Shown in pieces: positions 10,929 through 50,844 of a DNA stretch of 64,000 nucleotides; the first letter of the stretch is position 1; each line of letters begins with the position of its first letter. Where the stretch lies: assembly GCA_003233115.1 (NCBI GenBank), contig QIKV01000061.1:889-64888 (forward strand), given 5' to 3'. The position numbers and the translations under genes were made by a program. This stretch comes from Oceanospirillales bacterium (lineage in GTDB: Bacteria > Pseudomonadota > Gammaproteobacteria > Xanthomonadales > SZUA-36). The notes under the pieces were generated by a model. It saw only the letters and a list, made by a program, of their open reading frames with translations. It made no database searches and was not told where the DNA came from.

Positions 10929-11534
10929 CTACATCCCCGTCAAAATCTTCCAGCGATTCACGATGACACAGAACAATTCAGCAGTTTTGACCGTATCGTA
11001 TGCTGCCGAGTGCGCCGCCGACTCATCCCAGTCAATGGCTGCTGCCTGTACCGCACGCGCCAGTACGGTCTGGCCGAAAGCCAGCCCGCCCAGGGTTGCC
11101 GTATCAAATGAACTGAAGGGATGGAACGGATTGCGTTTGTAGTCAATGCGTTCAATGGCTGCGTTCAAAAAGGACAGGTCGAATGACGCATTGTGGCCTA
11201 CCAGTATGGCGCGCTGGCAGTCGGTGGCGCGCAATTCCTTCCGGACCGGCAGGAAAATGTTGCTCAGGGCCTCCTTCTCGCTGATGGGATTGCGCTGCGG
11301 ATCATCAAGGTCTATACCAGTGAACTCCAGCGAGCGCGCTTCGATACGGGCACCCTGGAAAGGCTCAATATTCGCTGCGATGGTTTCGGCGATCTTGAGG
11401 CGGCCGAAATCATCCATGCATAATATGCATGCTGCAATTTCCAGCATCGCATCGGTTTTAGGATTGAATCCACCGGTTTCGACGTCGATAACCACCGGCA
11501 AGAAACCCCTGAAACGGTCAGAAATACGTGGCAT
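10929..11534 (-). CDS. rnt: Ribonuclease T
   Basis: DEDDh exonuclease motifs (PVVIDVETGGFN, GHNASFDLSF, HSAAYDTVKTAELF). I chose the start MPRISDRFRGF at 11534. The track ORF extends to 11594. Confidence 0.9.
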   Translation of the reverse strand: MPRISDRFRGFLPVVIDVETGGFNPKTDAMLEIAACILCMDDFGRLKIAETIAANIEPFQGARIEARSLEFTGIDLDDPQRNPISEKEALSNIFLPVRKELRATDCQRAILVGHNASFDLSFLNAAIERIDYKRNPFHPFSSFDTATLGGLAFGQTVLARAVQAAAIDWDESAAHSAAYDTVKTAELFCVIVNRWKILTGM

Positions 11535-11571
11535 ATTGGATTCCGGCAACAAAGGCAGCGAGAATAAGGGA

Positions 11572-12501
11572 ATGCGTATCAAATTACCATGCAAAAAATA
11601 CTACTTAGTCAGGATTTCTTACTCGGCCTGCATGCTGACCCTGGCTTTGTTGTTAACTGCATTTGCTCCACTTGCCCTGGCCGATGCCGACCGGGCGGTG
11701 TTCTGGGCCATCGAGAAGGATAGCCAACCCGCTGGCTATTTGCTCGGCACCATTCACAGCGAAGATCCGCGGGTGCTGGAATTCTCAGAAGATTTTCTGC
11801 GCAAACTAAGAAGCAACAAAGTGTTTGCCATGGAAATGGTGCCTGATCTGCCGACGCTGGCGCGCCTGACCGACTATATGCACTACCCGCCGGGCAAAAC
11901 GCTCGAGTCGGTGATCGGGCCTGAACGGTTTGGGGCGCTGGTAACGGCACTGTCTGTCTACAAGGTGCCGACAGAGTTCATCGAAAAAATGAAGCCCTGG
12001 GCAGCCATGATGACGTTGAGTACGCCACCACCGGAAACCGGTTTTTTCATGGATCTGTCCCTGTCCCTGCGGGCCACCGGGAATGGACTCAGGGTAGTCG
12101 GTCTGGAAACGCTCGAGCAGCAACTATCGTTTCTGGAAAACATGCCCCTGCCGATGCAGTTGCGTCTGCTGGATCAGGCTATTGCAGAATCCGGACGGGC
12201 CACCGAAGTACAAGACCGGATGGTCGATGCCTACCTTAAAAATGACCTGGTATTACTACAGACGCTGTCTGATGCTGAATTGATGGCGGTGGGAATTGAT
12301 GAACGTAATTACTTTTTAGAGTCAGGTATCATCGCCCGCAACCACCGTATGTTGGAATCATTGCTGCCCCTGCTTGAAAACAACAGCGTATTTGTCGCCG
12401 TGGGCGCGCTACACCTGCCGGGTGACGAAGGCCTGCTTGGTCTGCTACGCCACAACGGCTATGAATTGAAACCCCTGGAAATGCCGTTTATTGGCGAATA
12501 G
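11572..12501 (+). CDS. TraB/GumN family protein (exported)
   Basis: Signal peptide followed by VFWAIEKDSQPAGYLLGTIH...VAVGALHLPGDEGL, the TraB/GumN hallmarks. The start is ambiguous (ATG 11572 or 11632). The track ORF's N-terminal 140 aa is antisense to rnt and was discarded. Confidence 0.75.
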   Translation: MRIKLPCKKYYLVRISYSACMLTLALLLTAFAPLALADADRAVFWAIEKDSQPAGYLLGTIHSEDPRVLEFSEDFLRKLRSNKVFAMEMVPDLPTLARLTDYMHYPPGKTLESVIGPERFGALVTALSVYKVPTEFIEKMKPWAAMMTLSTPPPETGFFMDLSLSLRATGNGLRVVGLETLEQQLSFLENMPLPMQLRLLDQAIAESGRATEVQDRMVDAYLKNDLVLLQTLSDAELMAVGIDERNYFLESGIIARNHRMLESLLPLLENNSVFVAVGALHLPGDEGLLGLLRHNGYELKPLEMPFIGE

Positions 12502-12525
12502 ATCAGAGGTTCCCCTAGGGAAGGC

Positions 12526-13221
12526 TCAACCTCTGCCAGTAAATTCCGGCACCACCAGCGCCACAGCACCGGCACCGAGCAGGCTTAAGCCCCACAAAGG
12601 TTCAACCCAGACCGTTGCCAGGCTCAGGACTATCAAAGCCAGTCCTGCGGACTGCAGCCCTCCTGTGCGGTCATTCTCCAGGTGGCCGCGACCGGTCATG
12701 CTGACCAGCAAATGATCCAGTGAGAACTTGCCTCCGCCAGCAAACACCAACGGCAACAGCATCACTACGAACAGCAAAGGCAGCTTAAAGTTGCCGTAGC
12801 CTTTGGGGGTGATGACATAGCCATTCCAAAGCTCTGCCAGGCTGCTCCATTCTGCAGGCCAGTGCACGGCGGCTGTTGCCACTACTGTAATAACGATGAG
12901 TGAAATTGCGGCGAAGCGCGTAAACAGCCCCAGTAATAGCATCACGGCAAATACCAACTCACCCCAGGTGGCCATAAACCAGTTCAGGTTGACGGGAATC
13001 TGGTCGAATGGAAATGGGAAGCCTTTTTGCCAGTCTGCCCAGGGAATATCAGCGAACCAGTTTTCCCCGTGCAGTTTTGTGACGCCGGAATCCCAGAACT
13101 CCCATGCCATGATCAGCCTGAGCACAAGTGGCCAGACGTAGTCGCCAGAGGCACGCAAGCGGGAGGTAATATTATCGTAGAAATTACTCATTTTGGTGTC
13201 CGCTTCGGTTAAATATTCCAC
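12526..13221 (-). CDS. DoxX-family membrane protein, Hvf/Buf cluster-associated (HvfX-like)
   Basis: Multi-TM DoxX pattern ([21 protein letters not shown]...). GTG start with AGAGGA upstream. Last gene of the DUF692/DUF2063 operon. Confidence 0.75.
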
Positions 13222-13255
13222 TTGAATGCATCCTCTGGATGCGGTGTTTTGCTTA

Positions 13256-14050
13256 TCAGGGCCTGGTTCCCAGTACGATCTCTTTATGCCTCAGGTTTTG
13301 TAGCAGGTCAGCGCCACCTTCAACGACGACTTCCGGGTTGGGATGATGGATTTCCTCAGCCACTGCGTGCAGCAACTCCAGACCTGTAGACTGCGGTTCT
13401 GCATTCATTTTTTGGAGTAAGAGCCGCGCAATATTATTTATTTGCATGAATTTCACAACGAAGTCGCGCTGCCGCCAGACCAGCAGATGGGTTGGCTTTT
13501 CCGGTGCTTCCCTGGGTTGGAACCCGGTGCAGATGCGGTGGACCGGGTAGGTGTAGCTCAGCGGCCAGGCAAGGGGCGACAATAGCGGGATACCGTTTAG
13601 CAGATCGCCGTGTTTGTCTGCTGCAATATCATCATGATCTGCTTCATCGAGCGACAAGGCCAGCTCCACCCATTCGTAATGGGCCAACTCCAGCATAAAC
13701 GGCGGGTCACCCTCACGGTTCTGGCGCTGATCCTGCAGGTATTTCATAAACTCGCGTGGTATTTCCGGGAATAACGGCGTGTGGCAGCGGTATTCCTTGT
13801 AAAAATCACGGCACAGACTGGTCCAGTCATCGTCACTGAACAAGGTTTTAAGTACGGGGAAATTACCCGACATAAAGCTCTTGATGTTATTGAAAAACAG
13901 GTCCCGGTAGATTCCCATGCGACGGTCTTCAATACCGGCGGGTGCAGCCGCAGATTGTGGATCCCGGATATGGGCAGTAAAACTGGCCTGTAACCTGGCG
14001 AGGGCTTCAGGCGCGGCGTCGCTTTTCATCTGTAGGCTCTTCTGCTGCAT
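13256..14050 (-). CDS. DUF2063 protein, HvfC/BufC-like partner of the MNIO enzyme
   Basis: F..HIRDP......[19 protein letters not shown]-terminal DUF2063 signature. Overlaps the 3' end of the DUF692 gene. Alternative start at 14029. Confidence 0.8.
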
Positions 14051-14924
14051 GTTCTGTAGTTTTGGGTTCTGTTAACGTGGATCCATCCCGGCTCCATTTG
14101 TCCTGGATGTCTCTGATTTTCTGTACTTCGGCCAACAACTCAATGATCGGGGGAATATTGAAATCCCGCTCCAGCAGCGTGGGAAACACGCCAAAGAATT
14201 CGTAGGCCTTGTCCAGCAGATCCCACACATTACCAATAACATCGGCACCATGTGTATCCACTATCAGGTCTTCAGCTACGTTGTAGTGGCCGGCAATATG
14301 GCCGTAGGCGATCCGTTCAGCAGGCAAGGCCGCTAAAAACTCAACCGGATCATAGCTGTGGTTCACGCTGTTAACGTAAATGTTGTTTATATCCAGCAGC
14401 AGATCGCAGTCAGCTTCATCAATGATCGAAGTAATAAAATCTATTTCACTTAGTTCAGCACCGGGTGCTGCGTAATAAGATGCGTTTTCAATGGCCATGC
14501 GCTGGCCGAGCATATCCTGAACCTGGCGGATACGCCCCGCAACGTATTTAACGGCTTCTTCGGTAAACGGAATAGGCATCAGGTTGTAAAGGTGACCATC
14601 GTCCGTGCAGTAACTCAGATGTTCACTGTATGCACGGATCTGGTACTGATCCATAAATTTCCGCAGCTTGTGGATAAAGGTCTGATCCAGTGGGGATGGT
14701 CCGCCGATCGACAGCGACAGGCCATGGCAGATAAATGGCAGGCGCTGTGTCAGCGTGCGGAAAGATTGCCTTCTCTGGCCGCCAACGTTGATCCAGTTTT
14801 CAGGCGAAATCTCCATGAAATCAACAATTCCATCAGTGATTTCAGGGGAGGCCTGAAGCGGGCCCAAATGAACCCGCCGCAAACCAAGTCCTGCACCCGT
14901 TACCGGGTGTTGAGGGTGACTCAT
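14007..14924 (-). CDS. DUF692 multinuclear non-heme iron oxidase (MNIO), HvfB/BufB/MbnB-like
   Basis: GAGLGLRR.H......DFMEISPENW...HGLSLSIGG...YSEHLS... is the DUF692 TIM-barrel signature. Starts 11 nt after the precursor stop. Confidence 0.85.
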   Translation of the reverse strand: MSHPQHPVTGAGLGLRRVHLGPLQASPEITDGIVDFMEISPENWINVGGQRRQSFRTLTQRLPFICHGLSLSIGGPSPLDQTFIHKLRKFMDQYQIRAYSEHLSYCTDDGHLYNLMPIPFTEEAVKYVAGRIRQVQDMLGQRMAIENASYYAAPGAELSEIDFITSIIDEADCDLLLDINNIYVNSVNHSYDPVEFLAALPAERIAYGHIAGHYNVAEDLIVDTHGADVIGNVWDLLDKAYEFFGVFPTLLERDFNIPPIIELLAEVQKIRDIQDKWSRDGSTLTEPKTTEHAAEEPTDEKRRRA

Positions 14925-14935
14925 TGCATCAAGTC

Positions 14936-15526
14936 TCAGACGTTACCGCCACACGAGCCGTCCTGGGCCTTCATATGCTTTTCACCGCAAGAGCCTTCTT
15001 TGCCTTTCTCGCCCATTTCTTTCATCTTGCTCATGTCGCCTTTCTCGCCACAGGAACCTTCTGTACCCTTCTCACCCATGGTGCTTTTCTCGCCACAGGA
15101 ACCTTCTTTACCCTTGCCCATGTTGCCATTCATGCTGCAAGAACCTTCACCGCCCTTGCCCATCTTGTCCATCTTGCCTTTCTCGCCACAGGAGCCTTCT
15201 TTACCCTTGCCCATCTTGTCCATCTTGTCCATCTTGCCTTTCTCGCCACAGGAGCCTTCTTTGCCCTTGCCCATTTTGCCGTCCATGCTGCAAGAGCCTT
15301 CCCCGCCTTTGCCCATCTTGCCCATCTTGCCCTTGTCACCACCACATTTGCCTTCCCCGCATTTGCCTTCCTGACCCTTGTCGCCTGCCAGTTGGTAGCC
15401 GGCATCCAGGTCAGAAGTCACAAAAGGATTGCCACCGGCCAAAGCCGTTGAAGAGACCGCAAGGGATGAAACAAATGCGACGCCGACAGCGGCTGCAACA
15501 GGGTTTAACTTTAATTTACTAGCCAT
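14936..15526 (-). CDS. Secreted repeat-rich Cys/Met-rich RiPP precursor, HvfA / EGKCG-bufferin-like
   Basis: Sec signal peptide (...SSTALA), NPF...GY segment, then EGKCGEGKCG followed by eight more [E/D]GSC[G/S] motifs. That gives 10 Cys, all within the motif, separated by K/M/G-rich spacers. GGAGG RBS. First gene of the operon. Confidence 0.8.
   Translation of the reverse strand: MASKLKLNPVAAAVGVAFVSSLAVSSTALAGGNPFVTSDLDAGYQLAGDKGQEGKCGEGKCGGDKGKMGKMGKGGEGSCSMDGKMGKGKEGSCGEKGKMDKMDKMGKGKEGSCGEKGKMDKMGKGGEGSCSMNGNMGKGKEGSCGEKSTMGEKGTEGSCGEKGDMSKMKEMGEKGKEGSCGEKHMKAQDGSCGGNV
14985..15375. repeat. Imperfect tandem DNA repeats inside the precursor gene
   Basis: A near-identical unit, catcttgcctttctcgccacaggagccttcttt(a/g)cccttgcccat, occurs at 15171 and 15231 (60-nt period). 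Related ctcgccacaggaaccttct units occur at about 15043 and 15078. Confidence 0.8.
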
Positions 15527-15549
15527 TTGGTAGAACCTCCACAGTTTAA

Positions 15550-15577
15550 AAAAAACCCGCTAACATTCAGTGCGGGA
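15550..15577 (-). terminator. Candidate intrinsic terminator/attenuator (weak stem, strong U-tract)
   Basis: Minus strand reads CCCGC-ACTGAATGTTA-GCGGG followed by T8. It lies about 260 nt downstream of the nth stop and about 25 nt upstream of the precursor start codon. Confidence 0.4.
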
Positions 15578-15836
15578 ATATTATTTCGGCGCCAATGCAC
15601 CTCTATTTACAACCCGTCAAGAGTCAATAAAGACCTCTTTCAGTAAGCCAAAAGAAGCAATCTATGCCCGGATTGATTCCGGAGACTAGCAATTCTTCAG
15701 ACGTTTTCCAAGGAATAATCCGTATTCGATGCTATAGACCGGCGCTCGGAGAGGATTATTACAAATGATTTCCGGAGTGCCCCCTTTTGCAGCTTTAGCG
15801 CCTGCTTGGAGTGCTGGAATGGCCGCAGCAGACCAT

Positions 15837-16475
15837 TCATCCATAGCCTTTTTGTTTTCCGGTTCTGCACAAGTCGCGGACGATGCATTCCGGGCAATTT
15901 GGTTTGCGTGCCTTGCACACATAACGCCCGTGCAGGATTAACCAATGGTGGGCATTGAGCAGGTATTGCGAAGGCACACTTTTCAGAAGTTTACGCTCAA
16001 TGATCAGGGGGGTTTTGCCAACTGCCAGGCCGGTGCGATTGGCCAGTCGGAATATATGCGTGTCTACTGCAATTGCAGGTTCGCCAAATGCGGTATTCAA
16101 TACAACATTGGCTGTTTTGCGACCTACACCGGGCAGGGCTTCCAGGGCTTCACGGCTTGAAGGTACTTCGCTGGCATGACTGGCAAGCAGAATCCTGCAG
16201 GTGGCGATGATATTTTTTGCCTTGGCGTTAAACAAACCGATGTGCTTGATATAGGCTTTCAAGCCTGCTTCGCCCACAGCAACCATGGCGGTTGGCGTAT
16301 TGGCGACTTTATACAGCCTGCGGGTGGCAAGATTGACGCTGACGTCCGTGGCCTGAGCTGAGAGTATGACTGAAATCAGCAATTCAAAATTGGATTGGTA
16401 TTCGAGTTCGGTGGTCGGTTGCGGATCGATGGCCTGCAAACGCCGGAAAAACTCAGCTCGGTCGTCAGGCTTCAT
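15837..16475 (-). CDS. nth: Endonuclease III
   Basis: HhH-GPD motif (LPGVGRKTANVVL) and a C-terminal 4Fe-4S cluster loop (C..RKPNCPEC...C). I chose the start MKPDDRAEFF at 16475, which overlaps the rnfE stop. Confidence 0.9.
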   Translation of the reverse strand: MKPDDRAEFFRRLQAIDPQPTTELEYQSNFELLISVILSAQATDVSVNLATRRLYKVANTPTAMVAVGEAGLKAYIKHIGLFNAKAKNIIATCRILLASHASEVPSSREALEALPGVGRKTANVVLNTAFGEPAIAVDTHIFRLANRTGLAVGKTPLIIERKLLKSVPSQYLLNAHHWLILHGRYVCKARKPNCPECIVRDLCRTGKQKGYG

Positions 16476-17145
16476 GCGCACTCTGAACCTGCTCTGCGGG
16501 CCAGCGGCCAGCCCTTGCTTCCCACGCATTGCGGGCTGCAATCAGCAATGCCAGGCCGATAAAAGCACCCGGGGGCAACATGGCCAGCAGAAAGCCGGGG
16601 TGTTCCGGGAAAATAGTCAGTGTGAGGCTTTTGGCCCAATCCCCCAGCAGCATGTCCGACCTGAAGAATAAGGTGCCGCGCCCCGTCAACTCTCTTAGTG
16701 CCCCAAGTAGAACCAGTGTAATGCTAAACCCGAGACCGGTGGCAAAACCGTCCAGTACTGATGGCAGCAGCTTGTTTTTTGAGGCAAATGTCTCGGCTCG
16801 CCCGATGATGACGCAATTGGTCACAATCAACGGCACATAGATGCCCAGCACCACGTAAAGATCATAGAAAAAGGCATGCATCAGTAACTCAATCATTGAC
16901 ACTACCGAGGCGATGATCAATACGAATGCAAGGATACGTATTTCGGGCCTTAACAGCCCGCGCAGCAGCGACACGGTAAGACTGGACAGTATCAGGGTCA
17001 GTAGGGTTGCCAGTCCCAGTGCCAGGCCGTTGACCACGGTGTTGGTGACCGCTAACAGCGGACACAGGCCGAGTAAAACAGCCAGTCCGGTGTTCCGCCG
17101 CCAGGCGCCGTCTGTGAGTATCTTCTTTAAGCTGGTGTCGGTCAT
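16465..17145 (-). CDS. rnfE: Rnf electron transport complex subunit E
   Basis: Polytopic RnfE/NqrD-like sequence (LLGLCPLLAVT...). Position in the rnfABCDGE order. Confidence 0.9.
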   Translation of the reverse strand: MTDTSLKKILTDGAWRRNTGLAVLLGLCPLLAVTNTVVNGLALGLATLLTLILSSLTVSLLRGLLRPEIRILAFVLIIASVVSMIELLMHAFFYDLYVVLGIYVPLIVTNCVIIGRAETFASKNKLLPSVLDGFATGLGFSITLVLLGALRELTGRGTLFFRSDMLLGDWAKSLTLTIFPEHPGFLLAMLPPGAFIGLALLIAARNAWEARAGRWPAEQVQSAHEA

Positions 17146-17166
17146 TGTGGGCCAGTTGATTTAGGG

Positions 17167-17814
17167 TCACTCATTGCGAATCACCGCCTGTGAGGGTGTA
17201 TCAAACAGTTCCTGCTGATGTGCCTGAAAGTACAATAACGCAGTGTGTACCGCCCTGACCACAGCCCGCGGCGAAATCGTGGCGCCGGTAAATTGATCAA
17301 ACTCGCCACCATCCCTTTTTACTGCCCAGCCACTTCCATCCGGATTGTGTAAAGACCTTTGTGCAAATCCGAATACCCAGTCGCTCTTTTCAGCCTCAAT
17401 CGGATCGCCAAGGCCGGGGGTTTCCCGATGAGATATCACCCGCACGCCGAGTATCGTCCCGGCGGTGTTGATGGCGACCAAAAGCCGTATGTCACCATTG
17501 TAACCACCCGGCGCGGTGATGATCATCAGGACGGACACAGGCTTGCCATCCAGGCGGGCCCGATACACAGTGACCGCTGCCGGATGTCTGAAAAACTCGG
17601 GGTCGCTGATTTCGATCACGTCCTCAAACAGATCATTGTTGTAGGAGCCAACCGGAACGATTTCGTTAAGCTGCTGCAGCACACGGCGTTTTTCCTGTGC
17701 GACGATGCGGTCATGTGTCAGGTAATTCACACCTGCCAGCAAAGCTGTTCCCAGCAGGGCGATGACGCCCAGTAGCAGGCCGCCGCGTACCACCGGTTGC
17801 AAAGCTTTACTCAT
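17167..17814 (-). CDS. rnfG: Rnf electron transport complex subunit G
   Basis: N-terminal TM anchor plus an FMN-binding domain (…DQFTGATISPRAV…). Confidence 0.9.
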   Translation of the reverse strand: MSKALQPVVRGGLLLGVIALLGTALLAGVNYLTHDRIVAQEKRRVLQQLNEIVPVGSYNNDLFEDVIEISDPEFFRHPAAVTVYRARLDGKPVSVLMIITAPGGYNGDIRLLVAINTAGTILGVRVISHRETPGLGDPIEAEKSDWVFGFAQRSLHNPDGSGWAVKRDGGEFDQFTGATISPRAVVRAVHTALLYFQAHQQELFDTPSQAVIRNE

Positions 17815-18852
17815 TTATCTGGCTCTTTCACCGTATATCCTCGGACGGGTATAGCGGTCAATCAACGGTGCTGCCATGTTCATCAGCAACACCGCAAATG
17901 CAACCCCATCCGGGTAACCGCCCCAACGCCGGATTACCAGTGTAATGATACCGACTCCGGCGCCAAAAATAAGCTGGCCCTTTTTGCTGACACAACCGCT
18001 GACCGGGTCGGTGGCGATGAAAAAGGCTGCCAGTATCAATGCGCCGGAAAAAACGTGTTGGATCGGGGACGGACTGCTATCCGGGTCGGCCAGCCAGAAA
18101 GGCAGGCTGAGCAGGATTACGCTGCCGATCACTGCGACCGGCACCTGCCAGCTAATAACACGTTTATACAACAGGAAGAAACCGCCCAATACAAACCAGT
18201 TCGCAACCCATTCCCAACCCACTCCGCCGAAGTCGCCAAATAAGGTGGACTGACGGATTTCAGAGACCATACGGCCTGAATCTATACCGGTTTTTAAGGT
18301 ATCCAGCGGGGTTGCCTGGGTGATGGCATCCCAACCGCCGGTCAGCGGAACGTGGCCTGTGAAAATAATCAGCAGACTGTCGAACAGTCCCGGACTCTGG
18401 TCAGCGAGAGCCAGTGGGGGCAACCAGGCAGTCATGGCTTGCGGGAAGCTGATCAGAACCACTGCGTAACCCACCATGGCCGGGTTGAATACATTCCTTC
18501 CCAGGCCGCCGTACAGGTGCTTGGCAAAACTGATGGCGAATAACATGGCGATCAAGCTAATCCACCATGGCGCGAGCGGTGGTATGCTCAGTGCAAAAAG
18601 GACTGCCGTTACCACTGCGCTGTAGTCGTTGATGAACGGCTGAAGTGGCTGCCTCCGCATGCGTAACATCAGAAATTCGAAGAGAAGTGCAAATCCTGTT
18701 GCCAGCAGAATTTGTATCAGGATGCCGGGGCCGAAAAACCACGTGTAAGCCAGTACACCGGGTAGCAGGGCAAAGAGCACCAGTAGCATCACTTTGGCCA
18801 CAGTTGTTCGCGGTGGCACATGCGGTGCGTCGCTGGTTGGGAAGCTACGCAT
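17815..18852 (-). CDS. rnfD: Rnf electron transport complex subunit D
   Basis: RnfD/NqrB-like polytopic protein (…FNPAMVGYAVVLISFP…, …FFIATDPVS…). Confidence 0.9.
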   Translation of the reverse strand: MRSFPTSDAPHVPPRTTVAKVMLLVLFALLPGVLAYTWFFGPGILIQILLATGFALLFEFLMLRMRRQPLQPFINDYSAVVTAVLFALSIPPLAPWWISLIAMLFAISFAKHLYGGLGRNVFNPAMVGYAVVLISFPQAMTAWLPPLALADQSPGLFDSLLIIFTGHVPLTGGWDAITQATPLDTLKTGIDSGRMVSEIRQSTLFGDFGGVGWEWVANWFVLGGFFLLYKRVISWQVPVAVIGSVILLSLPFWLADPDSSPSPIQHVFSGALILAAFFIATDPVSGCVSKKGQLIFGAGVGIITLVIRRWGGYPDGVAFAVLLMNMAAPLIDRYTRPRIYGERAR

Positions 18853-20380
18853 CAGCAGAATTCCCGTTGGCTCGATTCACACGGTCTTTTGATTTGGCTT
18901 TGTCTTTGAGCATTTGTTTGCGCCGGGCCATTTTTTCGGCACGCTCGTGCTCTTTCTGCAGCAGGCGGCCTTCGCGGGCTTCAAATCGCTTGCGGGCCAG
19001 GTCCGCTGCCTGTTTTGCAATCGCCCGCTGCCGAAGTTCGTCTTTACCATAGCGGAACCAACTCACCAGCGGGATGTGGCTGGGGCAGACAAAATCGCAA
19101 CAGCCACATTCAATGCAGGCCGCAAGTCCGTATTCCTCAACTGTGTCCCACCAGCCGTTTTTAATTTGTTTGTACAATTGTTGTGGCAGCAAGATCGCCG
19201 GGCAGGTGCGCGAACACTCACCACAGCGGATGCAGGGCATCTCCGCCTGTGGCGTGGTGATATCACGTTGCGTCAGTGCGAGAATGCAATTGACAGCTTT
19301 AACGACCGGTGTGGCATCAGTAGAGACGGCATACCCCATCATGGGCCCGCCGACAACCAGGCGGGCAACGTTGTCGCTATACCCACCACAAACTTTGACC
19401 AGATGAGAAAAGGGCGTGCCAATCAGGGCCAGCAGGTTGCGGGGTTGTGCGATGCCGTTGCCGGTGACCGTGACATAGCGTTCAATCAATGGTTTGCCAG
19501 CGGTGACGGCTTCAGCGACAGCGGCGGCCGTTGCGACATTCTGGCACAGCAGGCCGAGGTCGGAAGGCCGGCCACCGTAAGGCACTTCCAACCCGGTCAA
19601 CACCTGGACCAGTTGCCGTTCACCACCTTCAGGATAGATCTTGGTGATTTTAACGACTGTGATACGCTTGCATTCAGCACATTCTGCGGCGTAGGTGAGT
19701 GCTTCCTGAACCGCACCCATCCGATCTTCGATGGCGATAATCACCCGTTCGGCGCCGAGTGCATGTCTCAAAATGCGCGCACCGAGGATAATTTTATCCG
19801 GCTGTTCGCGCATCAGCATTTCATCACAACTAATATAGGGCTCACATTCTGCGCCGTTCAGGATCAAGGTGTGGATTTGCCTTTCACGTCCGTCCCGGGC
19901 CTTGATATGGGTGGGAAACACCGCGCCGCCGAGGCCGACGAGGCCGCTTTCCTGCAGCTTCTTGATCAGTACATCGGGATGTGTATTTTGTACATCGTTG
20001 ATGGGCTCAAGCTCCACCCACTGTTCTTTTCCATCGGGCCGGATGACCACACACGGACCGGTCATGCCCGAAGCGTGTGTCATCAACCTGTCTTCCACCG
20101 TCTCAACAGTTCCTGAGGTCGGGGCGTGCACCGCCACGCCTGCTTTACACCGGCCAATTTGCTGGCCTTTGCGCACCCGGTCACCGGTTTCTACCAGCGG
20201 CCTGGCAGCCTCACCGGCGTGCTGGAGCAGTGGTACTACCAGGATATCCGGCAACGGTGGTCGCTCTACCGGTACCCTGCAGGAGATACGCTTGTTATGC
20301 CTGAGCCGCAGGCCGCCATGAAAATGGTGCGTGTGTTTGCCAGCATCGCGCGCGATTTCTACCGGGTCAGCATACGTCAT
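18845..20380 (-). CDS. rnfC: Rnf electron transport complex subunit C
   Basis: FHGGL N-terminus, a NuoF-like NADH/FMN region, and two CxxCxxCxxxCP ferredoxin motifs ([24 protein letters not shown]). I chose the start at 20380, an ATGA overlap with the rnfB stop. Confidence 0.9.
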
Positions 20381-20934
20381 TGGGTAACCGCCAGGTATGG
20401 TGGTACCAATGGCCGCGGGCTGTGCCACTGTCGGATGCCCGCTGCGAGTTCAACCACGTCAATGCAATCCACCGGGCAGGGTGGCAGGCACAGGTTGCAA
20501 CCGGTACATTCAGACGCGATGACGGTGTGCATTAGTTTTTTTGCGCCGACAATGGCATCGACCGGGCAAGCTTGCATGCATAGGGTGCAACCGATACAGT
20601 AATGTTCATCAATTACCACCACGGTTTTTGGCTTTTCCTCGCCATTTTCCGGGTTCAGGGGCTTGATTTCGCGACCCAGCAAGGCAGCCAGCGCGCGTAT
20701 ACCTGCCGCACCGCCGGGCGGACACTGGTTGATATCAGCCTCGCCGTTGGCCATCGCCCTTGCGTAGGGCCGGCAACCGGAGTAGCCACACTGTCCACAC
20801 TGGGTTTGTGGCAGCAGGGCGTCGATCTGGCCGACCACGGAATCCGACCTGCCCCGCAGGCGCATACCCATCCAGCCAAGTCCCAGCCCGAATACCAGTC
20901 CCATGATGGTAATTGTCGTGATAGCGGTCAACAT
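20377..20934 (-). CDS. rnfB: Rnf electron transport complex subunit B
   Basis: N-terminal TM region, a CGQCGYSGC cluster, and two 4Fe-4S ferredoxin motifs ([24 protein letters not shown]). Confidence 0.9.
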
Positions 20935-20935
20935 G

Positions 20936-21517
20936 TCACAGGTTCGCCAGGCCGCTGAATCCCATAAACGCCAGTGCCATTAAACCGGCGGTGATCAGGC
21001 TGATCGGCGCGCCTTTGAACGGCAGTGGAATAGCGGCGGTCACAATGCGCTCGCGCATGGCAGTAAACATGACCAGTACCACGCCGAAGCCGGTGGCTGC
21101 CCCGAAACCATACAAGGCGGACTGCAACAGGTTGTGTTGTTGCTGGACATTCAGCAATGCCACACCCAGTATGATGCAGTTACTGGTAATGAGCGGCAGG
21201 AAAACCCCAAGCAGGCGATAAAGGATCGGGTTACTTCTGCGTACGACCATCTCGGTCAGTTGTACACTGACCGCGATGATCAGGATAAAACCCAGGGTTG
21301 AAAGGTATTCCAAAGACAGCGGCTTGAGCAAATACTGGAATAGCAGGTAGCTGGCGGTTGATGACAGGGTCAGTACGAAAGTAGTTGCTATCGCCATGCC
21401 CATTGCGCCTTCCAGCTTGTTCGACACGCCCATCAGCGGGCACACGCCCAGCAAGCGCACCAGCACAAAGTTGTTTACCAGCACAGTGCTGACAAGTATC
21501 AGTAGATATTCAGTCAT
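20936..21517 (-). CDS. rnfA: Rnf electron transport complex subunit A
   Basis: RnfA/NqrE-like 193-aa polytopic protein ([19 protein letters not shown]...). Confidence 0.9.
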
Positions 21518-24872: not shown

Positions 24873-26378
24873 TTGCAATTATACAGCGTCGACTTAACGG
24901 GTGCTCAGAAATTGACCGTAAAACCCATCAAAGAACCGATCTCCAAGGTTGATACCGCCTGGCTGCGCATGGAGCAGCCGACCAACTTGATGATGATCAA
25001 CGGGGTACTGATCCTGGACGAGAAGCTGGACCATGCGAAGCTGCTTGAGACCATTGAACAGCGCTTTCTGGCGTTCAGACGTTTCCGCCAAAAAGCCGTG
25101 GATAGCCCCGGTGGTGCCCACTGGGTGCTGGATGACGATTTCAATATAAATGACCATGTTCTGCGTACTGCCCTGCCGGGTGCTGCAGACCAGGCGGAGC
25201 TTGAGCTGCTGGTATCTCATCTGGCCAGCACCCCGCTGGACCCATCGCGGCCCCTGTGGCAGTTTCATGTGGTCGAAAACTACGTGGAAGGGCCGGCGTT
25301 AATTATTCGGATCCACCACTGTATTGCCGATGGTATAGCATTGGTACAGGTATTCCTTTCTCTTACCGACCCTACACGGGGCGGGCGGTCTTCTGCGCGC
25401 AAGCCGGAAACATGGAAAGAGCGACGGGCCAATGAGTCGATGGTATTCAGGCGCTTACTGGATCCAGCCCGTGAGGGACTGGATTTCGCCATGCACGTGG
25501 GCAGGCGGCTGCTCCAGGAGGGAATGAAAGTGTTGCAAAATCCGGCTGTTGCAGGCGACTATGCCACGGAAGCAAGTGCAATTGTTCGCGAGTTGGCCAA
25601 TTCGTTAACCCTCAGAGACGACCCCCTGACCCGCTTCAAAGGTCGCCTTGGCGTGCGCAAACAGGTGGCCTGGGCCGAACCATTGTCGCTTGCTGAAGTG
25701 AAAGGTGTGAGTAAAGCATTTGGCTGCACAGTCAATGACGTGCTTATCGCAGCGGTAACAGGTGCATTGAGGCAGTTCATGATAGCAGAGGGTGACAGTT
25801 CCGGCTCCCTGCAGGACATCCGCGTCACCGTGCCGGTCAATCTGCGCCCGCTTGAGCACGCGCAGGAGCTCGGTAACCACTTCGGACTGGTGTTTCTGTC
25901 CTTGCCGCTGAGCATCGACAACCCACTGGAGCGGTTGTACACCGTTAATGCCCGCATGAATGAATTGAAGTCCTCGAAACAGGCTACTGTTACGCTGGGA
26001 TTCCTCGCCGCGCTCGGCATGGGGCCTGCTGCGTTACAGAAGCCGGTTCTGGACATACTCAGCAAAAAGGCTACGGCCGTGCTGACCAATGTTCCAGGCC
26101 CGCAGCAACCGGTTTACCTGGCCGGGTCAAAAATGAAAGAAATGATGTTTTGGGTGCCGCAGAACGGCGGCGTCGGGCTGGGGATCAGCATACTCAGTTA
26201 TAACGCCAGGGTATATTTTGGATTAATCGCTGACCGTCGCCTGGTAGCAAAGCCAGCTGCAATTATTTCCCGCTTCAACAGGGAGTTTGAAAAACTCCTG
26301 TACATGGGCCTGATGTTGCCGCTGGATGGCCGGCCCACCCCGCAAAGTGCTGAGGATTTGGTGCGAATAACTGAATAG
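24873..26378 (+). CDS. Wax ester synthase/diacylglycerol acyltransferase (WS/DGAT)
   Basis: Catalytic HHCIADG motif, N-terminal PISKVD..WL..E pattern and a C-terminal NVPGP motif. The start is uncertain (TTG 24873 or another nearby non-ATG codon). Confidence 0.85.
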   Translation: MQLYSVDLTGAQKLTVKPIKEPISKVDTAWLRMEQPTNLMMINGVLILDEKLDHAKLLETIEQRFLAFRRFRQKAVDSPGGAHWVLDDDFNINDHVLRTALPGAADQAELELLVSHLASTPLDPSRPLWQFHVVENYVEGPALIIRIHHCIADGIALVQVFLSLTDPTRGGRSSARKPETWKERRANESMVFRRLLDPAREGLDFAMHVGRRLLQEGMKVLQNPAVAGDYATEASAIVRELANSLTLRDDPLTRFKGRLGVRKQVAWAEPLSLAEVKGVSKAFGCTVNDVLIAAVTGALRQFMIAEGDSSGSLQDIRVTVPVNLRPLEHAQELGNHFGLVFLSLPLSIDNPLERLYTVNARMNELKSSKQATVTLGFLAALGMGPAALQKPVLDILSKKATAVLTNVPGPQQPVYLAGSKMKEMMFWVPQNGGVGLGISILSYNARVYFGLIADRRLVAKPAAIISRFNREFEKLLYMGLMLPLDGRPTPQSAEDLVRITE

Positions 26379-26395
26379 CAGCGCGGCGGCGCGCC

Positions 26396-27247
26396 TCACT
26401 CCAGTTCAGCCAGCGCCGCTTCAATGTCCAGCTTTTCCATGGCATCTGTTGCTTGCAGCTCAGATGCCTCAACGTACAGATCAGTTACCTTGTCAAGTCT
26501 GTCATCCCCAAATAGCAGGTAAAGCCCGTTGCCGTATTCAATGTGTGCAATGGGCGAATTTGGGGTTAGTTCCAGCGCCTTTCGGAAGTGCATCAACGCT
26601 GTGTCTGTGCTTGCGCCATAAGTCAGTTTCCCCAGCATTTTGCCGACTTTACCAATGACTTCAGCATGGTACATGCCTAGCGCGATATGTGCGTCTGCAT
26701 GATCGGGCTCCAGTTTCAGGGCGTGCTCAAGGCTGGACTGGATTTTGCCCCCCAGTCCCTGGCGCAAGGCCTTGATGATGGAAATGCTCTGGCTGTAGCG
26801 GCCCAGGTTGAAGGCATGGAAATAATAGCTGTTCGGATCATCCGGCAAGGTCTGGATAGCGGCTTCGGCACGTTTTACCGCGGCCAGGAAGCAGGTTCGC
26901 GCTGTGCTCTCATCAGGTTCCAGATAGGTTGCATATATTGCTGCTGCCTTGTTGGCCGGGGCGTGTGCCAATTGACCACATTGCCCTGACAAGCTGGTTG
27001 CCTGCTGGAAGTCACCCGCGTGAAAACAACGCCACGCGGCTTGCATGATGTCCGCCAATGCTGACGCGTCACCAGCGTATGACGGCGGTGCTGCAGCCGG
27101 TGCCTGTTCGAGCGCTCGCTGAACCCACCCGGCATCCGGGAATTCCACACGATCACCGCCGTGCAACTCAGGCCACGACTCAAGCAGTTTACTGCCTTCG
27201 TATATGAAGGCTGCGTTGTTATGTGGAAAACTTTTCCATTTCGACAT
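26396..27247 (-). CDS. Hypothetical helical (TPR-like) protein
   Basis: 283-aa ORF with clean coding appearance and a helical-repeat character (…HADAHIALGMYHAEV…ALELTPNSPIAHIEYG…). No family recognised. Confidence 0.5.
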   Translation of the reverse strand: MSKWKSFPHNNAAFIYEGSKLLESWPELHGGDRVEFPDAGWVQRALEQAPAAAPPSYAGDASALADIMQAAWRCFHAGDFQQATSLSGQCGQLAHAPANKAAAIYATYLEPDESTARTCFLAAVKRAEAAIQTLPDDPNSYYFHAFNLGRYSQSISIIKALRQGLGGKIQSSLEHALKLEPDHADAHIALGMYHAEVIGKVGKMLGKLTYGASTDTALMHFRKALELTPNSPIAHIEYGNGLYLLFGDDRLDKVTDLYVEASELQATDAMEKLDIEAALAELE

Positions 27248-27372
27248 TCGTCTGATTTCCGTGATTCGGGTGAATTAAAAAAGAGTCCTGCTTTTAGTGT
27301 GTTTACTCTAATTCTTTTGCCTACTATGGGGCCATCAACAGTTAACCCTCACTGAAAATAAAGGAGATTGAG

Positions 27373-28125
27373 ATGACCACAAAGACATTAAAAAAGAAGG
27401 TACAGGCGAAGCCCGCAATAAGCAAGTTCACCACCCCTGTGGTTGATTCTGCACGGGACGTCTGGCGGGCCGGACTGGGTGCAGTTTCTATGGCGCAGAC
27501 TGAAAGTAGCAAGCTGATTGAACAGGGCAACCAATTGTTTGACAGGTTGGTATCTGAAGGTTCGAAGCTGGAGAAAAAAACCCGCCACGAGGCAGAAACT
27601 GCTATCGGTGATATCAGAAATGGTGTGGAATCGAAGCTTGATACCGTGCGCCAGCAGGCGACTACAAACTGGGATAGCCTTTTGGGCCTGTTCGATGAGC
27701 GTGTTTCAGATGCCCTGGACCGCTTGGGAGTTCCCACAACAAAGGACTTGAACAAGCTTTCTGGACATGTACAAAAAATGTCCCGGCAAGCTACCAGGAA
27801 CTGGAAGGAACTGGAAAATGTGTTTGATGAGCGTGTGTCGGGTATTTTGAATAGCCTGCACGTTCCCGGCGCTGAAGATCTCGACAAGTTGACTGGTAAT
27901 GTACAAAAGGTATCCAGAGAGGTAGCAGACAATCTGCAAAAGCTGGAAAGTACCCTCGAAGCACGGGTAGCGGAGATCCTGGACGGTCTCGGAATCCCGA
28001 CCACTGATGATACCGGTAAGCTGTCCGCTGAACTGGCGAAACTCTCCAGGCAGGTAGCTGCCATGGAAAAGGAGATAAAGGCGAGCACCAGGACTGCGCC
28101 GCGCAAGGCCGCGGCTACCAGTTAG
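27373..28125 (+). CDS. Phasin-family (PhaI/PhaF N-domain-like) granule-associated protein with a triplicated C-terminal module
   Basis: P.V.SARDVWRAGLGA.S.AQ.E..KL...G..LF..LV.EG.KLEKK matches the pseudomonad-type PHA granule-associated protein family. It is followed by three ~44-aa repeats (DERV....L..LGVPT..D...L...VQK.SRQ). AAGGAG RBS. Confidence 0.75.
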   Translation: MTTKTLKKKVQAKPAISKFTTPVVDSARDVWRAGLGAVSMAQTESSKLIEQGNQLFDRLVSEGSKLEKKTRHEAETAIGDIRNGVESKLDTVRQQATTNWDSLLGLFDERVSDALDRLGVPTTKDLNKLSGHVQKMSRQATRNWKELENVFDERVSGILNSLHVPGAEDLDKLTGNVQKVSREVADNLQKLESTLEARVAEILDGLGIPTTDDTGKLSAELAKLSRQVAAMEKEIKASTRTAPRKAAATS

Positions 28126-28130
28126 CGTGG

Positions 28131-28150
28131 GGTGGACATTTATGTCCACC
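28131..28150 (+). terminator. Hairpin downstream of phasin 1 (possible terminator)
   Basis: ggtggacat-tt-atgtccacc is a perfect 9-bp inverted repeat, with a T-rich tract a few nt downstream (ggtttattt). Confidence 0.45.
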
Positions 28151-28231
28151 GTACTGGTTTATTTGAATGCGACCGGGTGGGCCTGAATGTCCACCCTACT
28201 GTTGGTCAGACGTTCCCGTTTTAGGGTGTAT

Positions 28232-28248
28232 GCTCTAAATTTTAGAGC
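28232..28248. promoter_or_regulatory. Perfect 8-1-8 palindrome, candidate operator upstream of phasin 2
   Basis: gctctaaa-t-tttagagc lies 50-66 nt upstream of the phasin-2 start codon. Confidence 0.4.
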
Positions 28249-28297
28249 TAACATGCAAACAACATTCACAAATGCTCAAGTGAGCAAGGAGTTTGAA

Positions 28298-28825
28298 ATG
28301 GCTAAGAAGACATTAAAAAAGAAGGTAATGAAAAAGAAGGTTCAGGCAAAATCTTCAGCAAGTTATCTTGCCGCACCTGTGGTTGAATCTGCACGTGAAA
28401 TCTGGCTGGCGGGCCTCGGTGCATATTCTGTTGCACAGGCTGAAAGTGGCAAGCTGATCGAACAGGGTAACAAGCTGTTTGAGAAACTGGTTTCCGAGGG
28501 CAACAAGCTGGAGAAAAAGACCCGTAGTCTGGCTGAAACTGCTGTTGGCGATATCAAAGGCGGCATGGAATCGAAGGTTGAAACCGTTCGTAAGCAAGCC
28601 GTTGATAACTGGGATAAACTGGAAAATATCTTTGAAGACCGCGTTGCGCGGGTGCTGGGCCGGCTAGGTGTGCCGACGGCAGAGGATGTCAACAGGTTGT
28701 CTGAGCGGGTGCAGAAGTTGTCACGTCAGGTTACCGCGCTGTCCACGGCCAACTCCAGCAAGGCGGCAAAACCACGCAAAGCTGCGGTAAAAAAGAAGGC
28801 GGCAAAGAAGCCGGCCGCTAAATAA
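28298..28825 (+). CDS. PhaF-like phasin with a short Ala/Lys/Pro histone-H1-like tail
   Basis: The N-domain is paralogous to the 27373 gene (PVVESAREIWLAGLGAYSVAQAESGKLIEQGNKLFEKLVSEGNKLEKK). It has one copy of the 44-aa module and the tail KAAKPRKAAVKKKAAKKPAAK. AAGGAG RBS before ATG 28298. Confidence 0.75.
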   Translation: MAKKTLKKKVMKKKVQAKSSASYLAAPVVESAREIWLAGLGAYSVAQAESGKLIEQGNKLFEKLVSEGNKLEKKTRSLAETAVGDIKGGMESKVETVRKQAVDNWDKLENIFEDRVARVLGRLGVPTAEDVNRLSERVQKLSRQVTALSTANSSKAAKPRKAAVKKKAAKKPAAK

Positions 28826-28837
28826 GCAGAATATTCG

Positions 28838-28868
28838 GGGCCGGCATGATTGCCGGCCCTTTTCTTTC
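28838..28868. terminator. Bidirectional rho-independent terminator
   Basis: gggccggca-tgat-tgccggccc is a 9-bp stem followed by ttttctttc. It lies between convergent phasin 2 and tetR. Confidence 0.75.
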
Positions 28869-29505
28869 AGGCCTGACGGTAAGTTTGCGCCAGGGTTTTG
28901 AGCTGGCTTGCTTCAGGTTCACGCAGGTAAGGCAGGAGCAGGTACAGAACTCGCGCCACCGATCTGGAAAGCACTGTGCCATCTGCAAGACCGGGGTCAC
29001 CACGCACTTCGGCGTATGGAATCCAGTAAGTCATCAACAACAACGTGTTGTCGGCCAATGCCTCGCTCTCGCGTTCACAAATTTTCATAATGCCGCTATT
29101 CTGCAGGCCTGCGATCAGGCCCAGCAACGAAGTTCGCTGCCGCTCGAGCAGGCCATGAAAGGCCCGCTGGAGGTCTCTGATGCGGGTATAAAGATCATTC
29201 AGGTCACGAAAAAGGAAACGAAATCGTCCCATGGCCTCAAAAATGAGATGCAGGCGCAGCCATAAGTCCTCTATATCGGGTACAGTATTTTCCTCGATTT
29301 CCAGCAATGGCTGGATGTGCAATAAATACCGCTTAAACAGTTCCAGGGCGATATCATCCCTGCTGCGGAAATGGTAATACAGGTTGCCTGGGCTGATGTC
29401 CGCCTCGTCAGCGATATGGTTGGTGCTGACGTTGGGTTCACCAAACTCATTGAAAAGAAACAAGCTGGTCGAAAGCACAAGCTCCCTTGTATTGCGGCGT
29501 GTCAT
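28867..29505 (-). CDS. TetR/AcrR-family transcriptional regulator
   Basis: N-terminal HTH (LFNEFGEPNVSTNHIADEADISPGNLYYHF). Divergent from the fatty acyl-CoA reductase gene. Confidence 0.85.
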   Translation of the reverse strand: MTRRNTRELVLSTSLFLFNEFGEPNVSTNHIADEADISPGNLYYHFRSRDDIALELFKRYLLHIQPLLEIEENTVPDIEDLWLRLHLIFEAMGRFRFLFRDLNDLYTRIRDLQRAFHGLLERQRTSLLGLIAGLQNSGIMKICERESEALADNTLLLMTYWIPYAEVRGDPGLADGTVLSRSVARVLYLLLPYLREPEASQLKTLAQTYRQA

Positions 29506-29655
29506 ACCCCGTCAATCCGGTTTTTCATCTGATGTCTCCTTCGCCGTTCGCGCCCGGCGGCAACTGTTGATTGTAGCAGGGTGGGATATGTTTGCCGTTC
29601 TGATAAGATTGCACAGGTTACCCATACGCTTTAGGAACGGGATCGGAGGACTGAC

Positions 29656-49249: not shown

Positions 49250-49351
49250 GAAATTACCAATTCTGCATATCGGAGACCATACTAAATACGTACAATATCA
49301 CCTCTTATTTTGGTGTGTAGGATTTTCAGCGGGGCGTGGAAGAATATCTAT

Positions 49352-50134
49352 ATGAAACTTCTGATCAGCAATGATGATGGCATTGAAGCCAAGGGCATTC
49401 GCGTGCTGGCACAGAGCATGATGGGCCTGGGTGAGGTCACCATCGTGGCTCCGGATAAAAATCGCAGCGGGGCAAGCAATTCGTTGACACTTGATGCGCC
49501 GATCCGGATCAAGGAAATAGATGACAATGTTTACCGTGTGTCAGGCACGCCAAGCGATTGCGTACATATCGCCTTGACAGGCTTACTCGAAGGCGATCCT
49601 GACATCGTTGTTTCCGGTATCAATGCCGGCGCGAACCTGGGTGACGACGTGATCTATTCCGGTACGGTTGCAGCAGCCATGGAGGGCCGGTTTCTCGGCT
49701 TTCCGGCAGTGGCACTTTCGCTGGTATTTGACGAGCACCCCAGATACTTCGAGACTGCAAGTGAGGCGGCCATACGGATTGTGAAGCAATTGCAGCGGGA
49801 TCCTTTGCCTGCAGACACCATACTTAACGTCAATGTGCCTGACTATCCCTGGTCCGAAATCCAGGGTTTTGAAGTCACCCGGCTCGGCCACCGCCACCGT
49901 GCAGAATCGGTGATCAAGACCACTGACCCGCGTGGCCGGGATATGTATTGGATCGGCCCGGCCGGCGCAGAGCAGGATGCCGGCCCGGGTACGGATTTCG
50001 ATGCTGTCAGGCGCAAATTCATCTCTATTACGCCTATCCATGTGGATCTGACCCGATACCAGGCATTGGACCAGGTGGCAGGCTGGGTGACATCAATCGG
50101 CATTGGCGCAGATGCTGAGGAGGATGCTGCATGA
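49352..50134 (+). CDS. surE: 5'/3'-nucleotidase SurE
   Basis: [16 protein letters not shown]…[25 protein letters not shown]. Confidence 0.9.
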
Positions 50135-50808
50135 TTCATAAGCGCAAGCTTGGTACTGAAAACCGCGGGATCGGTATGACATCCCAGGGTACGCGTGACC
50201 GTCTCGTGCGGCGATTACGCCAGGAGGGTATCAAAGATGAGCGGGTATTGAAGGCTATCACCCAGGTGCCCCGGCATGAATTTGTCGATGAAGCCCTGTC
50301 CAGTCGTGCCTACGAAGATACGGCATTGCCGATCGGGCAAAGCCAGACCATTTCCCAGCCATGGATCGTGGCCCGCATGACCGAAGCATTGCTGCATGGC
50401 GGTAACCCCCAAAAGGTATTGGAAGTGGGGACAGGCTCAGGCTATCAGGCGGCGATCCTTGCACACCTGGTACCCTCGGTCTTTACGGTAGAGCGTATTG
50501 ATGAACTACTCAAACTTGCACGCCGACGCTTTCATGGCATGCGTTTGAACAATATATATATGCGCTATGCAGATGGCCACCTTGGCTGGCCCAGCCAGGC
50601 ACCATTCGACGGAATTATGGTCACCGCAGCAGCACAGTCGATCCCGGAGGAACTGTTGCAACAGTTGGGCGTTGGAGGTGTGCTGGTCATTCCGATTGAG
50701 AAACATGGCTACCAGCGTCTGATGGCCGTCCGGCGTAGTGAAAACGGCTTTGAAGAGTCGGATCTGGGCGGGGTCATTTTTGTGCCAATGCTCAGCGGCC
50801 TGGCCTGA
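50131..50808 (+). CDS. pcm: Protein-L-isoaspartate O-methyltransferase
   Basis: [12 protein letters not shown]…[16 protein letters not shown]…. Confidence 0.9.
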
Positions 50809-50844
50809 AGTGGCAAGTACCAACATAAAATCAACGGAGCACTG

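Follow-up and report, generated by a model that had tools for sequence, protein, structure and literature searches.

About 2,000 Buf_EGKCG/oxazolin precursors, 31-506 residues in length, have been catalogued, most of them in clusters encoding a ribosomally synthesized and post-translationally modified peptide (RiPP), a multinuclear non-heme iron oxidase (MNIO), a DUF2063 protein and a DoxX protein (Leprevost and colleagues, PMC12452194). More than 24,000 loci that combine an MNIO with a PME1 partner have been counted, and the class has been named captophorins (Gadgil et al., PMC13097082). The FonBC enzymes of Fontimonas thermophila have been reconstituted in vitro, and alkylation-assisted heteronuclear multiple bond correlation (HMBC) assigned 5-thiooxazoles to three members, fontiphorin, oxazolin (HvfA) and gonophorin (NgoA), all of which have been shown to bind copper (PMC13097082). 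The modification, earlier described as oxazolone/thioamide, has been revised to 5-thiooxazole (PMC13097082; bioRxiv 10.64898/2026.07.17.739211). The locus analyzed here consists of four minus-strand genes, hvfA, hvfB, hvfC and hvfX (12526-15526), and the leader upstream of them, in a 64,000-nucleotide stretch of contig QIKV01000061.1 from an Oceanospirillales bacterium assembly (GCA_003233115.1); this whole stretch is referred to as the window.

The four genes are a real operon of this large and well-studied family, in which Cys residues of a secreted peptide are converted to copper-binding thiooxazoles. By analogy with the characterized homologues, the probability that the locus is an hvf/fon-type captophorin (Buf_EGKCG/oxazolin) operon working like fonABC and hvfABC, with thiooxazole formation, Sec-dependent export and periplasmic Cu(I) binding, is put at roughly 85%. 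An earlier sequence-only reading of the window had proposed such an operon, and as an identification it was correct, but the operon is a new member of a well-described family and not new chemistry. The same reading held that only a handful of these systems had been studied and that this one was the most likely home of new chemistry. The first statement is at odds with the catalogued precursors and loci and with the three characterized members; and since the family is already counted in the thousands, the operon does not open new chemistry, 5-thiooxazole having been assigned already and the EGSCG motif being already modified in NgoA. Of the two heterocycle types that it named, thiooxazole agrees with the 5-thiooxazole of the homologues, while oxazolone/thioamide has been revised in the literature. 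Two leads, modest but genuine, are the Met-rich spacers of the precursor and the conserved, attenuator-like leader.

Operon organization and family assignment

All four genes are intact, co-oriented and tightly packed open reading frames (ORFs), found at exactly the coordinates that had been claimed for them. They encode, in order of transcription, the HvfA-like precursor (14936-15526, 196 amino acids), the MNIO of the DUF692 family HvfB (14007-14924, 305 amino acids), the DUF2063 and NGO1945_C partner (PME1) HvfC (13256-14050, 264 amino acids) and the DoxX-family membrane protein HvfX (12526-13221, 231 amino acids as the ORF was listed). The gap between hvfA and hvfB is 11 nt, hvfB and hvfC overlap by 44 nt, and 34 nt separate hvfC from the DoxX gene. 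Two plus-strand ORFs, 14592-15374 and 14924-15451, were discarded as antisense artefacts of the hvfA repeat.

Proteins were assigned with NCBIfam models, for which exceeding the curated cut-off was the pass criterion, and with Pfam for domain calls. HvfB scored 428.5 bits against NF003818 (cut-off 360), matching profile positions 1-264 of 264, and 340 bits (E = 9e-102) against PF05114 (MbnB_TglH_ChrH, formerly DUF692). It could be aligned to PDB 3BWW (E = 2e-73), to FonB and to MbnB, and residues H67, H102, E146, D178, N180, H209, D223, H225, E252 and D254 fall at conserved positions of all three. From the MbnB structures, we take these residues to be metal ligands. The equivalents of FonB Arg15/Arg16 are R16/R17, within GLGLRR, and those of FonB Asp249/Phe250 are D254/F255, within LLERDF; both motifs are identical to those of FonB. 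In FonB these residues are tied to substrate choice and catalysis, with Arg15, Arg16 and Phe250 representing the specificity of the Lys-Cys group (PMC13097082). By analogy, HvfB is predicted to be a 5-thiooxazole-forming peptide maturase.

An alternative is that the same operon makes oxazolone/thioamide pairs, as in methanobactin, instead of 5-thiooxazoles. This was the original assignment for Haemophilus influenzae HvfA (PMC11252979), and it is still carried in the NCBIfam names. However, it is incompatible with the alkylation-assisted HMBC on fontiphorin, oxazolin and gonophorin (PMC13097082), and the authors of the original HvfA work (PMC11252979) now give oxazolin six 5-thiooxazoles. The enzyme in the window, moreover, is 62% identical to FonB, while its match to MbnB reaches only E = 6e-9. 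Methanobactin-like chemistry is thus very improbable at this locus, and 5-thiooxazole formation is the product considered below.

HvfC contains PF09836 (DUF2063) and PF22106 (NGO1945_C) domains, scored 320.8 against NF050145 (cut-off 142), is 49% identical to FonC, and matches PDB 3DEE (NGO1945) with E = 6e-13. It is the PME1 partner, with a RiPP recognition element, encoded beside the MNIO. HvfX contains PF07681 (DoxX) and scored 132.1 against NF050144 (cut-off 80), with residues 29-172 matched. Translation of HvfX probably begins at the ATG at 13191 (Met11): its alignment with relatives starts near residue 12, and that with the HvfX profile at residue 29. The alignments to relatives cover 196-231 amino acids. 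The C-terminus of this protein (12526-12700, minus strand) extends about 60 residues, predicted to be hydrophobic, past the 165-position HvfX profile, and this extension is common to the relatives.

The precursor also passed a family model, the HvfA-family domain model NF050137 (KCGExKCG_twice), with 22.7 against a cut-off of 19.5. The E-values for the family matches are far beyond chance, and the DUF692, DUF2063 and DoxX calls of the sequence-only reading were confirmed by this profile hidden Markov model check, all three scoring above the curated NCBIfam cut-offs. Because four of four proteins exceed curated family cut-offs, the assignment is right: Pfam, NCBIfam and the identities to FonB and FonC all agree with a gene set of the Hvf/Buf_EGKCG type (MNIO, DUF2063 partner, DoxX and exported Cys-repeat precursor). 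An MNIO, a PME1 protein and a Cys-rich precursor at one locus, the combination by which captophorin biosynthetic gene clusters are recognized (PMC13097082), are all present.

The precursor and its predicted maturation

The low-complexity protein encoded at 14936-15526 had been said to bear a signal peptide, and by inspection its residues 1-30 (15526-15437) do read as one of the Sec type, with a basic, Lys-rich n-region, a hydrophobic core and an ALA|G site (A-L-A then G at residues 28-31). This N-terminus is alike in more than 50 relatives. It is followed by NPFVTSDLDAGYQLAG, a conserved NPFxxxDLDAGYQLAG segment, which is matched in FonA by SVFQASDLGAGYMVAS; both contain F-x-x-SDL-x-AGY. The core contains 10 Cys, arranged as a tandem EGKCGEGKCG followed by eight [ED]GSC[GS] motifs, and 16 Met. 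Its spacers are rich in Met, Lys and Gly and include MxxM arrays such as KMGKMGKGG, KMDKMDKMGKGK and DMSKMKEMGEK.

A database search returned 1,426 precursor homologues (best E = 1e-36). EGSCGEK is the majority motif in these and in the fetched related loci, and its Cys and Gly do not vary in more than 50 relatives. At motif position 3, Ala, Arg and Thr are also accepted by FonBC, and in NgoA, which has QGSCG and EGSCG motifs, 7/7 Cys were modified according to the legend of Fig. S18 (PMC13097082). By comparison with these enzymes, Ser in place of Lys in the Cys motif would not be new chemistry. The description of the precursor as divergent is therefore not borne out for the EGSCG motif, which NgoA shares in modified form, and is borne out for the Met-rich spacers, which the sequence-only reading had not stressed. 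The core has 0-2 Met in 119 of the 120 best database relatives and none in 38 of the 51 complete precursors from related loci. Met-rich cores are confined to a small sub-lineage, in which the precursor of locus L068 has 10 Met, those of L001 and L056 have 7 each and that of L006 has 6. The Met-rich core alone, used as a query, gave one match, which is uninformative on the frequency of Met-rich variants, and an exact-sequence database look-up of the precursor returned no record.

Precursors in the related-locus set are 103-202 amino acids long, and that of the window is the second longest, because 9-bp Met units are nested in 60-bp and 153-bp duplications. Tandem Repeats Finder detected these nested duplications at 15082-15382 on the minus strand: a 153-bp unit present 2.0 times (80% matches), a 60-bp unit present 2.1 times (15155-15280, 93%), and two 9-bp units, which were reported as their plus-strand complements. 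On the coding strand the 9-bp units are ATGGGCAAG (Met-Gly-Lys), at 15155-15178 and 15309-15332, and ATGGACAAG (Met-Asp-Lys), at 15206-15236. The precursor gene grows by nested 9-, 60- and 153-bp duplications, and these are the source of its extra Cys motifs and MxxM spacers. In one related locus from a metagenome-assembled genome (L008, 5530-5973), the precursor ORF turns after four GEGSCGE motifs to ...AKALAVKAKALAV..., which may reflect a frameshift or misassembly within the repeat.

This mode of growth bears on a second alternative, that only the EGKCGEGKCG pair is modified and that the Met/Lys/Gly-rich remainder is either a disordered Met/thiol Cu(I) sponge or a drifting slippage repeat without selected function. 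Recent tandem duplication of 9-, 60- and 153-bp units does account for the extra length, the length of the precursor ranges from 103 to 202 amino acids among relatives, and Ser ends two of the motifs. Two neighbouring repeats were required in the smallest FonA substrate (PMC13097082), while the EGSC motifs of the window are isolated. On the other hand, NgoA is modified at EGSCG motifs that stand alone, EGSCGEK prevails among the repeats of more than 50 relatives, in which Cys and Gly are invariant, and the reading frame is intact through all of the hvfA repeats. Restriction of the modification to the pair is considered unlikely, and modification along the [ED]G[KS]C[GS] array remains the preferred reading.

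Under this preferred reading, HvfA would be made as a 196-amino-acid precursor. In the cytoplasm, the iron enzyme HvfB, kept active by HvfC, would use O2 to convert Cys of [ED]G[KS]C[GS] motifs to 5-thiooxazole, a 4-electron oxidation expected to cost 4 Da per Cys. The modified peptide would then pass to the periplasm by means of its Sec signal peptide, where the thiooxazoles, probably aided by the MxxM thioether spacers, would bind Cu(I) and buffer copper stress; HvfX/DoxX would act as an accessory membrane protein. The chemistry, the copper binding and the export in this scheme are predicted from the characterized homologues.

Several observations weigh against this scheme. Even for the studied members of the family, metal specificity and physiological role are debated (PMC13097082). 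Pfam analysis of 55 window ORFs found no copper-related gene or regulator nearby. The HvfA equivalog model of the H. influenzae type, NF050188, gave the precursor 20.1 against a cut-off of 95; judged by its model scores, the precursor is best described as a member of the family and not as an HvfA orthologue. The 17-residue repeat with two EGKCG motifs that defines type 1, to which most family members belong (PMC12452194), is absent: there is one tandem pair, and the other motifs are single and lie 12-21 residues apart. Finally, two of the ten motifs are EGSCS. After the Cys, FonBC accepted only Gly or Ala among the variants tested (PMC13097082), so these two sites may stay unmodified.

Met-rich MxxM domains are established aids to Cu(I) recruitment in periplasmic copper proteins (PMC11494321). 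A literature search found no paper linking MxxM arrays to bufferins or captophorins, or interleaving them with RiPP modification sites. The Met spacers may add thioether ligands to the thiooxazole sites, and the alternation of thiooxazole sites and MxxM in one precursor would offer a natural test of cooperation between thioethers and thiooxazoles in Cu(I) capture.

A conserved leader upstream of hvfA

From the nth stop codon to the hvfA ATG there are 310 nt (15527-15836, minus strand), which form a conserved non-coding leader; about 240 nt of it are conserved. Alignments showed that this conservation is unusual for non-coding DNA. The comparison drew on about 60 related loci (L001-L009 and L014-L076), and the column counts below are from 58 sequences. 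A search with a DNA pattern of three conserved blocks matched at least 63 metagenome stretches, and more leaders exist in metagenomes. Among the 63 matches listed, 56 are true leaders, in which the pattern is followed at 220-237 nt by the start codon of an HvfA-like gene wherever the contig reaches far enough. The other seven (L019, L024, L030, L032, L052, L060 and L071) are chance matches in unrelated DNA and were excluded; four of them (L019, L024, L032 and L060) all lie in one conserved protein-coding gene unrelated to hvf. There is one leader copy per locus according to nhmmer, that of the window at 15513-15771. No Rfam family matched window 12000-16200 at E ≤ 1. A small ORF that runs through the leader (15686-15922) is broken by TGA in the majority of relatives in alignment A3; hence the leader does not encode protein.

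Two blocks in the upstream part of the leader are the most conserved, and these and the features that follow are all on the minus strand. The invariant block TGTAATAATC (15754-15763) is identical in 58/58 sequences at 9 of its 10 positions, and CCGGTCT (15736-15742) is identical or nearly so in the 58. Together they are a candidate protein-binding site or alternative extended -10 element. Neither block covaries with any partner; they are more likely to be protein-binding or promoter DNA. Downstream lies a promoter-like pair (15683-15711), TTGGAA at 15711-15706 and TAGTCT at 15688-15683, separated by a 17-nt spacer that is variable in sequence and fixed in length and whose last bases are TGC (15691-15689). 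The hexamer columns are conserved in 51-58 of the 58 sequences, except for the fourth -10 position, which is T in 33 and G in 25. The pair may represent a sigma-70 promoter with an extended -10, which it resembles in sequence. A scan of 12200-16000 for sigma-70 promoters and terminators found no promoter at threshold and no more terminators than in shuffled sequences.

The leader ends in a terminator-like hairpin (CCCGC...GCGGG) followed by U8 (15548-15576), 7 nt before a Shine-Dalgarno (SD) sequence, GGAGG (15536-15540), as read directly from the sequence. At least 6 U in the 8 nt after the hairpin, ending 5-7 nt before the SD, are present in 45/58 leaders. The median ΔG of the U-run hairpin is -8.2 kcal/mol, with a conserved A·C mismatch weakening many of these hairpins. 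The interval from the U-run to the SD is too short for a promoter, which means that all transcription of hvfA must read through the hairpin and the U-run.

Between the promoter-like pair and this hairpin, the leader has three further hairpins (15588-15657): H2 (about 15657-15634), H3 (15628-15609) and H4 (15601-15588). Pairing in H4 reaches 94.9%, and 4 of its 5 pairs show compensatory changes, for example columns 94/111 (AU 25, GC 23) and 97/107 (GC 36, AU 12); in H2 it is 83-84%, and 6-7 of the 7 pairs show double changes. H3 (AUAACUC with GGGUUGU) is 97-98% paired, as is a long-range pairing of UGACCCG with the CGGGUU of H3, and in each of them only one side varies. The two are mutually exclusive, an arrangement that would suit a switch. 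In a model-based alignment, the four-hairpin structure was 86.7% paired, compared to 33-44% when the partners were slid by 1-3 columns, and the covariation score was equalled in 0/500 shuffles. Because the alignment had been fitted to the structure, it favours it, but the counts for H4 and H2 were the same on a plain MAFFT alignment. Other pairings fared less well. A helix of AAUAAUCC with GGAUUAUU was rejected, its variation breaking pairs with no covariation, and another around the -35-like box (columns 49-56 with 72-79 of A3), 59% paired and clade-specific, was dropped as a general feature. Pairing of AGUCUYC with the SD region (GGAGRU) was 91%, with no compensatory change and one position failing in 25/58. 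A long hairpin on the 5' side (columns 6-18 with 29-42 of A6), 72.6% paired, is a possible alternative to H2.

These observations can be read in two ways. One is that the leader is not a riboregulator, and that it combines an rnf-nth terminator with an ordinary promoter and transcription-factor sites for hvf, the hairpins being incidental. The lack of covariation in the two most conserved blocks, the promoter-like pair with its fixed 17-nt spacer, the one-sided variation of H3 and of the long-range pairing, and a folding energy of the leader in the window that is not unusual (z = -0.49) are all in line with this, and it is a serious possibility, held at somewhat less than even odds. It accounts less well for the compensatory changes in H4 and H2, for the 86.7% of cells paired against 33-44% when partners are slid, and for the position of the hairpin and U-run, which all candidate promoters precede, which lie 5-7 nt from the SD and which hvfA transcripts must traverse. 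The other, more tentative reading, which we hold to be rather doubtful, is that the leader is an undescribed cis-regulatory RNA (a transcription attenuator, possibly a ligand or metal switch) gating a copper-metallophore operon, in a lineage without the usual extracytoplasmic function (ECF) sigma control, and that the Met-rich precursor is a hybrid thioether/thiooxazole Cu(I) sponge, an undescribed captophorin subtype. Expression of the operon would pass through a conserved leader ending in a weak hairpin and U-run just 5' of the ribosome-binding site. The attenuator-like leader offers a concrete element for the regulation of EGKCG-type operons without a sigma/anti-sigma pair.

Genomic context

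The closest genomes are from uncultured Gammaproteobacteria, some labelled Xanthomonadales or Lysobacterales, with HvfB identities of 58-83%. The operon lies next to rnf-nth, as had been claimed, and directly downstream of it; the order rnfE-nth-leader-hvfA-hvfB-hvfC-doxX, then a convergent TraB/GumN gene, was found in every related locus with enough flanking sequence. In the window, the convergent TraB/GumN-family gene ends 24 nt past the hvfX stop codon, and the longer arrangement rnfABCDGE-nth-hvfABCX-(convergent TraB/GumN-family gene), at 11146-21517, is fixed across the clade. This suggests a lineage-wide link of the Rnf/endonuclease III unit with the metallophore operon. The fixed position 3' of rnf-nth, at about 60 loci of an uncultured gammaproteobacterial clade, hints at a connection to redox or Fe-S stress.

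Regulators were sought with Pfam among 55 window ORFs, up to about 57.7 kb, and no ECF sigma factor, NrsF, MerR/CueR or copper ATPase was found among them. The earlier statement that the window has no ECF sigma/anti-sigma pair or copper regulator holds for these ORFs. The Neisseria ngo locus presumably has an ECF sigma/anti-sigma pair; there is no such pair among the scanned ORFs. The only sigma factor (52416-53381) has regions 1.2, 2, 3 and 4 and is therefore RpoS-like and not ECF. It belongs to a classical surE-pcm-(VTT)-nlpD-rpoS order at 49310-53381. Elsewhere in the window, a cluster at 24873-31644 encodes a wax-ester synthase/diacylglycerol acyltransferase, a phasin, a TetR regulator and a fatty-acyl reductase-like protein (NAD_binding_4 and SDR), which suggests neutral-lipid or polyhydroxyalkanoate storage metabolism.

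Comparison with characterized systems

Fontiphorin is the closest characterized system, closer than Haemophilus Hvf, because FonB and FonC are 62% and 49% identical to the proteins of the window and the specificity and catalytic residues are kept. The fonABC cluster of Fontimonas thermophila resembles the operon in its signal peptide, SDLxAGY segment, tandem EGKCGEGKCG, and Arg-Arg and Asp-Phe residues (PMC13097082). Unlike the operon in the window, the fon cluster has no DoxX entry in Table S4 (PMC13097082). FonA is a 108-amino-acid peptide with seven Lys-Cys sites and no Met-rich spacers; in the precursor of the window, eight of the 10 sites are Ser-Cys, and there are 16 Met.

The hvfXABC operon of non-typeable Haemophilus influenzae, for which Cu(I) binding has been shown, shares the four gene families and the exported EGKCG-repeat precursor (PMC11252979). 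The gene order differs, X-A-B-C in Haemophilus and A-B-C-X in the window. The precursor of the window is without the N-terminal disulfide pair of H. influenzae HvfA, and the enzymes resemble those of Fon more closely than those of Hvf. Gonophorin, from the ngo locus of Neisseria gonorrhoeae, resembles the window in combining EGSCG and EGKCG motifs in one precursor and in the presence of DoxX, and all of its motifs are modified (PMC13097082), but its spacers are rich in Ala, Ser and Lys, in contrast to the Met-rich spacers found here.

The bufferins Buf1 (DUF2282) and Buf2 share membership in the MNIO mega-cluster, DUF2063 and DoxX partners, Sec export and a copper-stress role (PMC12452194). 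Their precursors have folded DUF2282 or 6/12-Cys domains, and the precursor of the window matches neither. The Met-rich Cu(I) domains of the CueO/CopA type (PMC11494321) have MxxM and MxxMxxM arrays like those of the window, but these sit in folded multicopper oxidases, whereas the arrays of the window are interleaved with RiPP modification sites.

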